Made by a program: the position numbers and the translations under genes. From NCBI GenBank assembly GCA_012729475.1, contig JAAYDB010000068.1:23697-87696 (forward strand): 64,000 nucleotides of DNA, in the 5' to 3' direction. The stretch is from Bacteroidota bacterium (GTDB taxonomy: Bacteria; Bacteroidota; Bacteroidia; Bacteroidales; VadinHA17). Under the pieces are notes generated by a model. It saw nothing but the letters and a program-made list of their open reading frames with translations, searched no databases and was not told the DNA's origin. Positions 4,070 through 21,104 of this stretch are shown here, piece by piece. Numbering within the stretch: the first letter of the stretch is position 1; every line of letters begins with the position of its first letter.

Positions 4070-5422
4070 ATGAAAGGTAGTGCTGATGATCTGCGGAATG
4101 AAAAGCTGGGTAAGTTACTCCTGAGTTATTCTTTGCCTGCTATCATTGCTACTTCAGCAGCATCATTGTACAATATCACCGACAGGATCTTCATTGGTCA
4201 GGGTGTAGGTCCTCTCGCCATATCGGGTTTGGCTTTAACCTTTCCCCTGATGAATATTACAGCGGCTTTTGGTGCAATGGTTGGTGTTGGTGCCAGTGCT
4301 ATGGTATCTATACGTCTGGGACAACACGACAGGAGAGGGGCAACACAAATTCTCGGTAATGCAGTTATGTTGAATATCATTCTGGGGATCTCCGTAGGTC
4401 TGATTGCTTTGATTTTTCTTGAACCGCTCTTGTATGCCCTCGGAGCAAGTATAGATACATTTCCCTATGCCAGGGAGTATATGCAGGTTGTTCTGGCCGG
4501 CACTGTTTTTACTCATCTTTATCTTGGGATGAATAATATTATGAGGGCATCAGGCTATCCCTCAAAGGCTATGGTTACTACCCTCATTACTGTTGGCGTC
4601 AATCTTATTCTGGATCCGTTTTTTATTTTCTTTCTGGGCTGGGGTATACGTGGTGCAGCCATTGCAACGGTGTTGTCACAGATTGCAGGAACTATCACTG
4701 TAGTAGTACATTTTGTTAAAGGAAAGAGTTTTGTTCACTTTCTGCCAGGTTACATGAAGCTTAAGAAATTGATAATAGGTGATATTATTTCAATTGGAAT
4801 GTCTAATTTCCTTATGCTTATAGCCGGTAGTATAGTTATAACATTAATAAATATCAGTCTTGGCAGATATGGAGGTGATCTGGCTGTAGGTGCTTTCGGT
4901 ATAGTGTACAGTATAACCAATCTTGCTGCAATGGTAGTAGTGGGACTTAACCAGGGGATGCAGCCCATAGTTGGTTATAATTATGGGGCACTGAAAACCG
5001 AACGTGTGCTTAAGGCTTTCAAAATGACAGTGTTTGCTGCCACTGCTGTAACAAGCTTTATGTTTCTGTTTGCTGAGATCTTTCCCGGAATGATAGCAAG
5101 GGCTTTTACAAAAAGTCCCGATCTCATTGGTCTGACAGTACGGGGCATGCGATTAAACCTCATGGTGTTTCCCATTGTAGGATTTCAAATGGTTACATCC
5201 AGTTTCTTCCAGTCTATAGGTAAAGCCAGATTCTCAATATTCCTTTCTCTTACACGGCAGGTCCTCTTCCTGATCCCTGCCCTTCTTATTCTTCCGCGTT
5301 TCATAGGGCTTGATGGTGTCTGGCTGGGGGGACCTGTATCAGATTTTTCATCTTCCCTGCTAACACTTTTTGTTCTTAAATGGCAGATAGGGATACTTAA
5401 AAAAAGACAATTCCCTATATAA
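4070..5422 (+). CDS. MATE family efflux transporter
   Basis: 450 aa, about 12 hydrophobic segments. N-terminal LLLSYSLPAIIATSAASLYNITDRIFIGQGVG and internal GMQPIVGYNYGA motifs are typical of MATE/NorM-like transporters. Confidence 0.9.
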   Translation: MKGSADDLRNEKLGKLLLSYSLPAIIATSAASLYNITDRIFIGQGVGPLAISGLALTFPLMNITAAFGAMVGVGASAMVSIRLGQHDRRGATQILGNAVMLNIILGISVGLIALIFLEPLLYALGASIDTFPYAREYMQVVLAGTVFTHLYLGMNNIMRASGYPSKAMVTTLITVGVNLILDPFFIFFLGWGIRGAAIATVLSQIAGTITVVVHFVKGKSFVHFLPGYMKLKKLIIGDIISIGMSNFLMLIAGSIVITLINISLGRYGGDLAVGAFGIVYSITNLAAMVVVGLNQGMQPIVGYNYGALKTERVLKAFKMTVFAATAVTSFMFLFAEIFPGMIARAFTKSPDLIGLTVRGMRLNLMVFPIVGFQMVTSSFFQSIGKARFSIFLSLTRQVLFLIPALLILPRFIGLDGVWLGGPVSDFSSSLLTLFVLKWQIGILKKRQFPI

Positions 5423-6128
5423 ATTTTTCCCTCCTCTGAAGATTGAATAAGGCAGCTAAAAGGAATAAAACTGAAGCTGTGATAAGAATTATGCGGTTCT
5501 TCAAAGTGATAATTGCCCATGTAGCCTCACTGACCCCATAAGCTGTATTGAATGGATTATGAAACAGGTTCCACTGGCTTTTTAACAAAGGGTCATCAAG
5601 GATCATAAAAAAGAATCCAAAAATAATCATTACCACTGCTGTCCCGTTGCCGTTTCTGATAAGGGTTGAAAACATAAATGACATCATCCCTATAAACAGA
5701 ACTGGTATCATTACATGAACAGTTACAGGGATAATAGGAAAGCGTACAATCAGGACAGAAGAGATAAAAGTGAAGATCAGCATAATAACAAAAGCAATAA
5801 GAAATATCAGAATTATTCTTACCAGCCAAACCTTATATCTGTAATCGGGGATACCGAAAAGTATCTCTATGGTGCGTGCATCCTGATCATTCTGGATTCC
5901 AAAGGTTGAAGGATAAAAGACGAGAAGGATGCCCGAAAAAAGAAATACGCCATAGAGGTCGGACATTTCTGATATGTCGTTCGTGAAAACATATAAGACA
6001 GACAAACCAAGGTAAAAAAATATTGATCCGGCAAGAAACCACATGAATTTATTCGCAAATATGATCCTCAGATTATAGAAGATCATCATCCGGATAAGAA
6101 TAAAAAGGTTAGAGATTTTTTTGATCAT
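5415..6128 (-). CDS. ABC-2-type transporter permease (6 predicted TM), last gene of the hybrid efflux operon
   Basis: 237-aa hydrophobic protein with about 6 helices. It starts 10 nt after the stop of the RND-ABC fusion gene. No ATPase gene of its own, so I infer it pairs with the fused NBD. Confidence 0.6.
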   Translation of the reverse strand: MIKKISNLFILIRMMIFYNLRIIFANKFMWFLAGSIFFYLGLSVLYVFTNDISEMSDLYGVFLFSGILLVFYPSTFGIQNDQDARTIEILFGIPDYRYKVWLVRIILIFLIAFVIMLIFTFISSVLIVRFPIIPVTVHVMIPVLFIGMMSFMFSTLIRNGNGTAVVMIIFGFFFMILDDPLLKSQWNLFHNPFNTAYGVSEATWAIITLKNRIILITASVLFLLAALFNLQRREKFI

Positions 6129-6138
6129 GTTTTTATTA

Positions 6139-19700: not shown

Positions 19701-20211
19701 ACAAGAAGGAAAGACCGAGGCTGAAGAGTAAAGTAGGTACACATATTATTATCAGGTATGTGACATAAGACAGCAGATCGACTGTCATGCTTTTCGAAAT
19801 GACATTAATGATCAGTGCTATAAGAAGTATTATTATATCCAGGCCGAGAAACAATTTGAGTATACCCCATGTTTTACCTGTCACATATTCAAGGTTTGAC
19901 ATAGGCCGGGTATAAAGGACCTCATTGGTGTCAATCTTTTTGTCTCTTCTGAGGAAATCAGCTGCGAGAAAGATAACAAGAACTGACTGTGCTATATTAA
20001 GCAGATACAAATTCAGCAGAGGAACGGAAGAGGGGATGGCAACAAGCTCCCATGATTCATCTCCTATAGGGGAGAATAGACCCAGATTCAAGAAAGTGAA
20101 GATAAGCAGGGCTCCTATTGAAAAAAGCCTGAAGAAGAGACTTCTTCTGAGAATTGTTGCTTCGTAGCGGGCAATGGTTTTTATATTGTGAAAAAAGGAT
20201 ATATTGTTCAT
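16726..20211 (-). CDS. ABC-2-like permease (about 7 TM) fused to a roughly 880-aa extracytoplasmic domain of unknown function
   Basis: 1161 aa. The first roughly 280 aa contain about 7 hydrophobic helices. The remainder is hydrophilic, with Gly-rich linkers (GPVGGRSGLRGGAPLLMAAEGGSNNSNDGGSN; TGGPAGESQGRPTRPVSTGG) and a C-terminal module ending ...GGWNNLGRYYLSSDTARVVITNMSEGKYVIADAVRWVKDF. The start ATG overlaps the stop of the upstream ATPase gene by 1 nt. Confidence 0.7.
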   Translation of the reverse strand: MNNISFFHNIKTIARYEATILRRSLFFRLFSIGALLIFTFLNLGLFSPIGDESWELVAIPSSVPLLNLYLLNIAQSVLVIFLAADFLRRDKKIDTNEVLYTRPMSNLEYVTGKTWGILKLFLGLDIIILLIALIINVISKSMTVDLLSYVTYLIIICVPTLLFSLGLSFLLMLILRNQALTFLILLGIAALNLFWLYYRFGSFFDYMAFGLPVFKSGVIGFDNPELIINQRLMYGLLGISLACASVLLFNRPPQSKIHTGVSIALMIFTFAGSFICGLNTVSLYKTALHDRKMVIEAAREFEHSETLSLTSASIDLLHAGETIQATATLSLTNNNNDSIDKYFFSLNPGLKINSIVRNNTELKYRTVNHITEVEAQKPLYHGQTDSITISYSGTINEAFCYPDYSGSINDNPYSIEFLNVNKRQAFLTERYVLLTPETHWYPVPGLNYYPSNPARIKVDFTSFHLRVNTSEGLRAVSQGLMKKEGDCFCYSPESPLTGLTLAIGNYCSDTLEVDSINYIIHYFEGNDYYKNDLSGLKDTMSYLVSGIMRELEATFSTTYPFKTLSFLEVPVQFYSYPRMSTQTRAELQPSMVLLPEKLVTMRNAGFRKQMIRQKKRMARNNQIITDKDLQVRLFNDFIRNSFISGENFRYIDGVAINEPVRYRLSPSFYFFRNNFYSFKYPVINAVFESHLQKVTPPSQTTGYYGSTPGLSDYDKANLVLSNYSLNEILSKNPSSDTIRKILTLKGDYLFNLLRAKAGIDEFNTWFKKYIDNNQFRSVSADQFNKDIKNNFGFEFYPFLDEWFNAKEQAAFNITSLQVSQIIIDNRQRYQVTFTASNPEPVAGLFTVSFRTGPVGGRSGLRGGAPLLMAAEGGSNNSNDGGSNIPDASNISKIVVLGPGEARKVGLTLDAEPRVMMVNTLVSKNIPGLIVWNINNINNSPAGTKPFEGEILLESIPDYSNPLEIIVDNEDPGFIVNEKTDNSPLKRILGISNENSFSYQQINQRYAPEHWQPVVQPDYYGKYILSAVYTRSGNNTQEASWNAVIREPGYYNIYFYVGKAIEQDIRRDRTGGPAGESQGRPTRPVSTGGDVSPADQSVKDIHLKIYHNEGIEELTFDYQNARGGWNNLGRYYLSSDTARVVITNMSEGKYVIADAVRWVKDF

Positions 20212-21104
20212 TACTCGCTTAAATGGGTTTGTAACCTGTGTTCCATGTAATAGACATAAGCATGTTCTATGCCGGGAGTGATAGCCAGTGATTCATATAC
20301 CGGTGTCTTATCTGAAACAATCTGCACATCCCACCCATTTTCTGTAGGTATTGTAGATATAATATCGTATTGATCTTTTGCTTTTTCGTATTCCACAGGT
20401 GAAAGGCTAAGGTTAAATACGTGGCCTTCTGCCTTTTTAATCAGGTTTTCCGGGGGTCCTGAGAAAACCAGTTCTCCTTTGTTAAGGAGTGCCATGCTCT
20501 GGCATGTTGACGAGATATCACCCACAATATGTGTTGAAAGGATTATTGTAACATTGTTTTGTGACAACTGTGAAAGAATGTTTCTGAATCTTATTCTCTC
20601 GTCAGGATCTAGGCCGGTAGTGGGTTCGTCAACAACTATTACAGATGGATTGCCAATAAGAGCCTGGGCTATTCCCAGCCGTCTTTTCATACCTCCTGAC
20701 AGTTTATTGGCCTGTCTGTCGCGGACTTCGAATAATCCAACCTGGTCAAGCAGCCTGTCAACTTCCGACATACGCTTTTTCCTGTTCTTCATTCCTGTCA
20801 GAGAACCTGAATAATCAAGGAATTCCCATGTTTTAAGAGAAGAAAAAAACCTGAAATCCTGGGGCAGATAGCCAAGTATACCGCGTAAGAGCTTTCTGTG
20901 GTACTGAATATCTTTTCCATCAATGAGTATTCTGCCTGAAGAGGGTTTCAGAAGGGTTACCATTATCTTCATCAGGGTTGATTTTCCAGCTCCGTTAGGC
21001 CCCAGTAAACCAAACATACCCCTCCCGAACTTGAGATTTATTTCTTTAAGGGCATGATTGCCATTAGGATATACCTTGCTTAGATTTTCTATTTCAATAA
21101 TCAT
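20211..21104 (-). CDS. ABC transporter ATP-binding protein (ABC-2/DrrA-like), first gene of the operon
   Basis: 297 aa. Walker A GLLGPNGAGKST, Q-loop GYLPQD, signature LSGGMKRR, Walker B VVDEPTTGLD, H-loop STHI. Confidence 0.92.
   Translation of the reverse strand: MIIEIENLSKVYPNGNHALKEINLKFGRGMFGLLGPNGAGKSTLMKIMVTLLKPSSGRILIDGKDIQYHRKLLRGILGYLPQDFRFFSSLKTWEFLDYSGSLTGMKNRKKRMSEVDRLLDQVGLFEVRDRQANKLSGGMKRRLGIAQALIGNPSVIVVDEPTTGLDPDERIRFRNILSQLSQNNVTIILSTHIVGDISSTCQSMALLNKGELVFSGPPENLIKKAEGHVFNLSLSPVEYEKAKDQYDIISTIPTENGWDVQIVSDKTPVYESLAITPGIEHAYVYYMEHRLQTHLSE

Follow-up and report, generated by a model that had tools for sequence, protein, structure and literature searches.

Tripartite pumps of the bacterial envelope are taught as having one energy source each, either an ion gradient, for those built on a resistance-nodulation-division (RND) or major facilitator superfamily (MFS) transporter, or ATP, for those built on an ATP-binding cassette (ABC) transporter. 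A comprehensive 2021 review in Chemical Reviews lists no other classes and deals with the RND-, ABC- and MFS-driven pumps separately (PMC8277102). Here we describe a cluster of seven genes (g1 to g7) from a Bacteroidota bacterium of the VadinHA17 lineage, contained in a stretch of 64,000 nucleotides (the window; positions 23,697 to 87,696 of contig JAAYDB010000068.1, assembly GCA_012729475.1). The cluster belongs to a conserved family in which an RND permease and an ABC ATPase are covalently joined through a linker predicted to place membrane helices inside the ATPase fold.

Like MdtABC-TolC, the cluster combines two tandem RND paralogues (RND-A, g5, and RND-B, g6) with one adaptor (g4) and one TolC-family channel (g3). 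It differs from MdtABC-TolC in that RND-B carries six transmembrane (TM) helices and an ABC ATPase at its C-terminus, RND-A and RND-B are ~27% identical and have Asn at the positions equivalent to D408 and K940 of AcrB, and two probable ABC-2 permeases and a second ATPase belong to the conserved cluster. By its components it is an RND tripartite pump of the AcrAB/MdtABC-TolC type, but its RNDs lack the full HAE-1 triad and score below the NCBIfam cutoffs. With MacAB-TolC and DevBCA it shares the presence of an ABC ATPase gene beside those for an adaptor and a TolC-family channel, which makes ATP energy available to an envelope-spanning system; its ATPases, however, are of the ABC-2/type V class, and an RND core is also present. 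No Pfam match to FtsX or MacB_PCD was found in any of the seven products and, having no FtsX-type permease, the cluster is not MacB-type.

NosDFY, GldAFG, DrrAB and YbhGFSR resemble the cluster in other respects. The ATPase fold and its C-terminal domain are like those of NosF and TM_1403, GldA and DrrA are the best NCBIfam models, and six-helix permeases of apparent ABC-2 type are present (weak or orthologue-based matches); the large periplasmic domain of g2 recalls the periplasmic partner NosD. In the cluster, however, the periplasmic domain is fused to the permease and appears M1-like and carbohydrate-binding-module (CBM)-like rather than a beta-helix, and one ATPase is fused to an RND and predicted to be split by a membrane insertion. 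As all scores fall below the family cutoffs, the ATPases are not GldA, DrrA or NosF. In public databases the products carry generic names ('efflux RND transporter permease subunit', 'ATP-binding cassette domain-containing protein', 'AcrB/ABC-type ... ATPase subunit', 'hypothetical protein'), and neither an RND-ABC fusion nor an ABC-2/M1 fusion was described in the full-text literature searched, in keeping with an earlier note on this stretch, which did not recognise the combination as a described system. The architecture would surprise efflux specialists.

A conserved seven-gene cluster

The seven open reading frames (ORFs) all lie on the minus strand, from 21104 to 5415, with recomputed intergenic spacings of -1 (g1/g2), 56 (g2/g3), 76 (g3/g4), 5 (g4/g5), 19 (g5/g6) and 10 nt (g6/g7); the g1 stop and the g2 ATG share 1 nt in a TAATG overlap. 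The longest ORFs of g3 and g6 open at GTG codons (16744 and 10956) upstream of the ATGs at 16669 and 10863, and public gene calls for identical proteins (493 aa for g3, 1574 aa for g6) support the ATGs. The window proteins are deposited in GenBank as NLV18955-18961 (tags GXY51_056xx-057xx) from a biogas-reactor Bacteroidota metagenome-assembled genome (MAG). The earlier note had described seven minus-strand genes with near-zero spacing; the ORF listing and the gaps reproduce its coordinates, and its choice of ATG for g3 and g6 agrees with the public calls. The features are as follows.

20211..21104, minus strand: g1, free-standing ABC ATPase of 297 aa with a C-terminal regulatory-type domain (ABC_tran E 1.5e-32; NLV18961.1)
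19357..20211, minus strand: g2, N-terminal membrane domain (aa ~1-285), seven helices, putatively ABC-2/NosY-like (hydropathy, AlphaFold2 (AF2))
17797..19299, minus strand: g2, putative periplasmic M1-aminopeptidase-like region (aa ~305-805) without catalytic motifs (Foldseek, weak Pfam match)
16726..17784, minus strand: g2, C-terminal beta-sandwich region ending in Golvesin_C, CBM6/35/36-like (Pfam E 6.9e-11, AF2 strands)
15188..16669, minus strand: g3, TolC-family outer-membrane factor (OMF) of 493 aa; signal peptide, possible lipobox LLSC (OEP E 3.6e-49)
14059..15111, minus strand: g4, lipoprotein periplasmic adaptor (membrane fusion protein, MFP) of 350 aa with lipobox LTGC (TIGR01730, HlyD_D23, HlyD_3)
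10883..14053, minus strand: g5, RND-A permease of 1056 aa (ACR_tran E 1.3e-220)
7771..10863, minus strand: g6, RND-B permease domain, aa 1-1031 of 1574 (ACR_tran E 1e-159)
7573..7737, minus strand: g6, predicted extra TM hairpin right after RND TM12, aa ~1043-1097 (hydropathy, AF2, alignment A1)
7516..7548, minus strand: g6, first beta strand of the ABC domain, predicted to be detached from the rest; reads ISIHIQSLVKI-Y and includes the A-loop Tyr (AF2, A1)
7066..7428, minus strand: g6, predicted four-helix membrane insertion between ABC strands 1 and 2 (AF2, hydropathy)
6139..6987, minus strand: g6, remainder of the ABC ATPase with a C-terminal regulatory-type domain (ABC_tran E 5e-27)
5415..6128, minus strand: g7, six-helix permease of 237 aa, putatively of divergent ABC-2 type (orthologue matches; NLV18955.1, 'hypothetical')

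The arrangement is conserved far beyond chance and is no assembly artefact. A scan of one genome per GTDB species (185,579 genomes) with an alignment of the g6 C-terminal region returned at least 34 full-length matches, whose hosts include Bacteroidales MAGs, Parabacteroides massiliensis, Bacteroides sp. 224, Prolixibacter bellariivorans, Draconibacterium mangrovi, Maribellus maritimus, Marivirga tractuosa, M. sericea and MAGs labelled Calditrichaceae and Latescibacterota. Gene order and identity at each locus were determined by tblastn with the window proteins. The order g2, OMF, MFP, RND-A, RND-B fused to its nucleotide-binding domain (RND-B::NBD) and g7 was the same in about 28 species-level genomes with loci long enough to show it, at 25-78% amino-acid identity to the window, and was found in three Bacteroidota orders (Bacteroidales, Marinilabiliales and Cytophagales) as well as in the Calditrichaceae- and Latescibacterota-labelled MAGs. 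Directly upstream of g2 stood g1 in all five contexts reaching that far (the window included), and g7 followed g6 in every locus extending that far; spacing stayed tight across genomes, with gaps of at most 42 nt in loci L003 and L004. ORF clustering of the 10-kb flanks at about 30 loci detected no family downstream of g7 in more than four loci, and with nothing conserved there the unit comprises g1 to g7.

In 30 of 31 complete loci the fused RND-B::NBD gene ran as a single ORF without interruption (1565-1616 codons); the remaining locus comes from a long-read MAG with evident frameshifts. A search with the C-terminal 546 residues of g6 identified more than 100 metagenomic proteins that join ACR_tran to ABC_tran. 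The covalent attachment of an ATPase to an RND chain, described in the earlier note, is borne out by these single-ORF fusions, and the recurrence of the order in about 28 genomes makes the seven genes a conserved co-directional unit rather than the chance adjacency that the note had named as a refuting outcome.

Two observations concern individual assemblies. In the long-read assemblies L001, L002, L004 and L038, g2, RND-A and RND-B::NBD are broken into short gene calls, apparently by frameshifts, and protein-database matches to the fusion are consequently mostly fragments of 500-950 aa. On the Latescibacterota chromosome OZ244847.1 (L040, 32-12308) the cluster is kept at 21-42% identity and the OMF gene alone is missing, between g2 and the adaptor, so that the channel must be encoded elsewhere or be dispensable in this organism.

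The RND-B::ABC fusion

In the long ORF of g6, ACR_tran covers residues 32-1060 and ABC_tran residues 1338-1479, with about 270 residues between them. We aligned 16 fusion proteins, down to 53% identity (alignment A1), to examine this intervening region. The RND portion closes at '...FYSGLENS' and is followed by two hydrophobic helices and, after this hairpin, by the motif I-x-I-x-I-Q-S-L-V-K-I-Y, in which LVKIY is invariant or nearly so. This segment matches the N-terminus of g1, IIEIENLSKVY, which constitutes the first ABC strand and the A-loop Tyr. Next come a conserved amphipathic segment, four hydrophobic helices and 'PFKAL..VSL.I..GMFGLLGPNGAGKTT', corresponding to strand 2 and Walker A. 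An AF2 model of a 543-aa fragment of g6 (predicted local distance difference test score, pLDDT, 75) had helices at fragment residues 12-32 and 36-66, a strand at 75-85, insertion helices at 124-138, 142-170, 177-206 and 209-235, and the next strand at 269-280 onward. The model thus reproduces the order of elements in A1, with the ATPase fold split by a four-helix membrane insertion and a hairpin in front of it, giving six extra helices in total. Since this number is even, the ATPase stays cytoplasmic.

The ATPase itself has its motifs intact (Walker A K1326, Q1367, signature 1421-1423, D1444-E1445 and H1476), with no variation in Walker A, Q-loop, signature, Walker B D-E or H-loop among the 16 sequences of A1. 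Its closest solved folds by Foldseek were TM_1403, NosF, ABCA and LptB, with TM_1403 and NosF at E 1e-17 to 1e-15, and against the GldA model (TIGR03522) it scored 175 bits compared to a cutoff of 402.6.

When the linker alone (275 residues) was searched with phmmer against 1.84 billion representative proteins, 100 clusters were matched. The full-length ones are all ~1550-1585 aa, with the linker at ~1025-1300; as every full-length match lies at the RND-fusion position, the linker is found only behind an RND. We also considered whether the six linker helices represent a split ABC-2 membrane domain, and rejected this as hhalign showed no similarity to g7 or to the N-terminus of g2.

The RND core and the ABC partners

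The components around the fusion form a complete RND set. g3 matched OEP with 167.6 bits (cutoff 22), with TIGR01844 and TIGR01845 below cutoff, and g4 matched TIGR01730 (RND_mfp) with 192 bits (cutoff 94.9). In both g5 and g6 ACR_tran covers nearly the whole 1021-position model, indicating full-length RNDs of 12 TM helices. The best NCBIfam model, RND_permease_2, gave 577 bits for g5 and 459 bits for g6 against a cutoff of 1250, and the RND_permease_1, AcrB, MdtB and MdtC models likewise stayed below their cutoffs, MdtB and MdtC by far. RND-A and RND-B score about equally against HAE-1 and HME models, all below the curated cutoffs. The best solved-structure match of RND-A was MdtB (9lyq, E 9e-93).

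Metal-type (HME) RNDs and SecDF lack a K940-type lysine yet are proton-driven, and Asp/Arg pairs suffice for proton coupling in other members of the RND superfamily such as SecDF. The AcrB proton relay is the triad D407/D408/K940 with R971, and the D408 and K940 positions are reported to be critical for it (PMC8277102). We located the equivalent residues by alignment to MdtB and by extracting the motifs from all loci (about 30). RND-A has LVD430-N431 in TM4 (12740-12772), N950-N951 in TM10 (11183-11218) and R980...T987 in TM11; RND-B has LVD398-N399 in TM4 (9646-9678), N942-N943 in TM10 (8017-8052) and R972...T979 in TM11. The equivalents of AcrB D407, E414, N941, R971 and T978 are kept in both RNDs at essentially all loci, and those of D408 and K940 are Asn in both, with single exceptions. 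Neither RND therefore carries the complete HAE-1 proton-relay set (D407, D408, K940, R971, T978). The two Asn are notable yet do not decide the question of proton coupling. In one Bacteroidales MAG (L008; 4994, 6548) RND-A reads 'LVDDAIVVLEN' in TM4 and 'GIAVSNAIILID' in TM10, that is, Asp-Asp and Ser instead of Asp-Asn and Asn, and this variant falls at exactly the two positions that differ from AcrB.

On the ABC side, the sequence of g1 has the motifs of a canonical ATPase (Walker A, Q-loop, signature, Walker B D-E, H-loop). Its best NCBIfam models were GldA (TIGR03522; 188 bits, cutoff 402.6) and DrrA (187 bits, cutoff 312), both below cutoff, and together with the g6 ATPase it belongs to the ABC-2/type V class, a membership that holds at the level of the class. 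The two ATPases are 43% identical over 270 residues, C-terminal domain included, and each is 35-48% identical to free-standing ATPases from many phyla. A recent duplication, which would point to an obligate heterodimer, is not supported by these values.

g2 has seven hydrophobic segments within residues 29-278 (hydropathy, AF2 helices), followed by about 880 residues. Its membrane domain matched ABC2_membrane_2 weakly and below cutoff (E 0.048), some homologues are named 'multi-copper enzyme maturation permease' (NosY-type) in IMG, and these matches and names suggest an ABC-2-type permease. The AF2 model of g2 (pLDDT 53) is too poor for detailed reading. In a Foldseek search with its periplasmic part, the best 50 matches were all M1 aminopeptidases (top E 6e-9), the Pfam score for Peptidase_M1 was 15.3 bits (E 0.015, cutoff 27.7), the sole match of a PDB profile search was an M1 peptidase (the cold-active aminopeptidase 3CIA, E 0.68), and four distant family members carry a precomputed PF01433 match. 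Among 29 aligned members (the window and 28 homologues) neither HEXXH at its expected position nor GxMEN was present; the stray HEIKH of a single homologue, at position 357, lies away from where the motif is expected. These several weak and concordant signals suggest that the region is M1-like but no peptidase. Residues 812-1159 are modelled as beta strands and end in the only domain of g2 above cutoff, Golvesin_C (Pfam E 6.9e-11), a member of the CBM6/35/36-like group (PMC9166713). The family comprises at least 760 proteins, almost all annotated 'hypothetical', and these findings now give a fold and a context to this family of mostly 'hypothetical' proteins of ~1160 aa.

g7 has six hydrophobic segments by hydropathy. 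The window protein matched no Pfam and no NCBIfam model; of 16 orthologues, two matched ABC2_membrane_3 (E 2.4e-6) and two ABC2_membrane_2, suggesting through these homologues a divergent ABC-2 permease. BLASTP and hhalign gave no significant similarity between g7 and the g2 membrane domain, which are therefore not detectable paralogues; all that they have in common is the helix spacing and a motif after TM2. A domain scan proposed in the earlier note found the expected ABC_tran (g1, g6), OEP, RND_mfp/HlyD and ACR_tran, but no ABC-2 membrane model for the window g7, and ABC2_membrane_2 in g2 stayed below cutoff. Its proposal of two ABC modules holds in the form of two pairs of an ATPase with a probable ABC-2 permease, g7 being assigned through homologues and g2 through weak matches and IMG names.

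In locus L088 (4216-15376), g2-like genes resembling the Latescibacterota versions are headed by a g1-like ATPase (55% identity), after which come apparently three g2-like genes in tandem that end in Golvesin_C and are in part broken up by frameshifts. The L088 contig contains no RND, adaptor or channel gene. This suggests that g1 with g2 is an autonomous module elsewhere that can be multiplied, and that the cluster is a composite of modules.

Modes of operation and genomic neighbourhood

In E. coli, single-component inner-membrane pumps cooperate with AcrAB-TolC in two-step efflux, and YbhGFSR of the same organism is an ABC-2 exporter that uses an MFP. We favour, tentatively, a reading of the cluster as one hard-wired two-stage exporter, with the ABC module or modules working at the inner membrane and the RND/MFP/OMF duct providing the way out for the substrate. 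The logic is that of two-step efflux, where an inner-membrane transporter feeds the periplasm and an RND tripartite pump removes the substrate, with the difference that the E. coli partners are separate and unlinked whereas here they form one cluster and one partner is covalently fused. The conserved gene content, the fusion with its even helix count and the intact motifs of both ATPases are the observations behind this reading.

RND-A and RND-B would probably assemble as a heterotrimer with the lipoprotein adaptor and the TolC-family channel, as MdtBC is a known RND heterotrimer (PMC8277102). ABC module II would consist of the ATPase at the C-terminus of RND-B and g7, with the six extra helices holding the ATPase against the RND; module I would consist of the g1 ATPase and the g2 permease with its putatively M1-like, catalytically dead, and CBM-like periplasmic domains. 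If these parts co-assemble, the ATP-driven ABC-2 module or modules might move or extract a substrate located in the cytoplasm or the inner leaflet and bring it to the periplasmic face, where the g2 domain may bind it, and the ion-gradient-driven RND trimer could capture it and expel it through the duct of adaptor and channel. Such an arrangement would hard-wire, by a covalent link, the cooperation known between single-component inner-membrane pumps and AcrAB-TolC. The retained D407/R971/T978 equivalents in both RNDs are compatible with ion coupling, and the occurrence of g1 and g2 without an RND in L088 makes the ABC modules look like recruited autonomous transporters. As a hint to the substrate, the CBM-like and peptidase-like domains suggest an amphiphile that bears a glycan or peptide. 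Co-assembly of the parts, their stoichiometry and the direction of transport are inferred.

Four points weigh against a two-stage exporter. The incomplete HAE-1 triad makes the energy coupling of both RNDs uncertain; dimerisation of the fused ATPase requires two side-by-side RND-B protomers or pairing with g1; the poor g2 model (pLDDT 53) weakens the M1-like assignment; and no biosynthetic or regulatory neighbour hinting at a substrate was found in the window, in the flanks or in L087. If the parts do cooperate, the cluster would amount to a natural experiment that couples two energy sources or hard-wires two-step efflux. Direct tests are possible in the cultured hosts P. massiliensis, P. bellariivorans, D. 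mangrovi, M. maritimus and Marivirga tractuosa.

The incomplete triad also bears on an alternative that we consider unlikely, namely an RND driven or gated by ATP. The fused ATPase, by itself or paired with g1, would move the RND-B membrane domain through the six extra helices. Proton-driven cycling would then be replaced or gated, and g7 and g2 would be scaffolds or coupling partners with no substrate pathway. RND-B would be the first RND with a cycle mechanically driven or gated by ATP through a fused, membrane-inserted ABC domain, the loss of D408 and K940 would mark a shift away from pure proton coupling, and the seven proteins would be a new class of dual-energised trans-envelope machine; this larger claim we hold to be equally unlikely. 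A dual-energised or ATP-gated exporter was what the earlier note had proposed, an idea that stays plausible and to which the altered relay residues in both RNDs lend some colour. Two of the three canonical triad residues are replaced by Asn in both RNDs, the ATPase is attached right after TM12 and appears held at the membrane by an insertion in its own fold, and the linker exists in no other context, all of which speak for such a machine. However, RND-A has the same substitutions and no ATPase, the D407, E414, N941, R971 and T978 equivalents are strictly kept and an Asp/Arg pair is enough elsewhere, as in SecDF. HME RNDs, too, are proton-driven without K940, and RND-A and RND-B score about equally against HME and HAE-1. 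A dedicated ABC-2 permease beside each ATPase also argues for ordinary ABC transport units.

A machine for periplasmic mechanotransduction or envelope maintenance, as in NosDFY, LolCDE or LptB2FG, seems to us improbable. Here ATP hydrolysis by module I would power the g2 domain to extract or hand over a glycolipid, lipoprotein, polysaccharide or peptide, which the RND, adaptor and channel would then bring to the outer membrane or pass across it. NosF, ABCA and LptB are among the closest folds to that of the ATPase, the large non-catalytic periplasmic domain of g2 has a carbohydrate-binding-type end, and lipid A genes stay adjacent in the closer relatives of the window. This adjacency is nevertheless lost in L087, no lipid or polysaccharide biosynthesis genes are linked to the cluster in the 10-kb flanks of the ~30 loci, and its patchy distribution (at least 34 full-length matches in 185,579 species genomes) argues against a core envelope function. 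Equally improbable are independent pumps, an RND tripartite pump and two ABC-2 exporters co-inherited and co-expressed with a fusion that serves co-localisation or stoichiometry alone. In favour of such independence, g1+g2-like modules do stand alone in L088, each ATPase has its own adjacent permease, and the 43% identity between the g1 and g6 ATPases lies within the range that they show to free-standing ATPases of other phyla (35-48%). Against it, order and content are strictly conserved over deep divergence, to as little as 25-37% identity in the Latescibacterota locus, the ~270-residue membrane linker is conserved and never occurs without an RND, and the whole cluster shares one adaptor gene and one channel gene.

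The divergent HD-lpxD-lpxC/fabZ-lpxA cluster begins 62 nt upstream of g1. At 21167-27931 the window encodes an HD-domain protein, lpxD, a fused lpxC/fabZ, lpxA, YccF and a DUF4140/DUF4139 protein, after which the window lineage has a V-type ATPase operon. No TetR or AraC regulator is adjacent to the cluster in the window, and no exact TAnnTTTG (the Bacteroidota -7 box) occurs in the 300 nt before g1 or in either of the two larger gaps inside the cluster; the earlier note had likewise given the distance of 62 nt to the lpx genes and reported no adjacent TetR/AraC-type regulator and no convincing -7 box upstream of the cluster. No intergenic terminator was found in the window, where sigma-70 and terminator scans are uninformative for Bacteroidota, and no Rfam family matched anywhere in it. 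The lpx block is kept beside the cluster in L003, L004 and L005 (57-63% g2 identity), and in L087, a more distant relative, unrelated genes take its place. Its loss there indicates lineage synteny, and we rejected the lpxD-lpxC/fabZ-lpxA adjacency as a functional clue.

Downstream, the 3' end of g7 is overlapped by 8 nt (5415-5422) by a convergent MatE gene (MATE efflux) on the plus strand (4070-5422), an adjacency not kept in other genomes. In L087 (4577-7252) a small separate cluster directly upstream of g1 encodes an ABC ATPase, a GntR regulator and two further proteins of 265 aa and 225 aa, and a response regulator with a PglZ domain is also nearby; the GntR protein is a possible local regulator in the L087 lineage.

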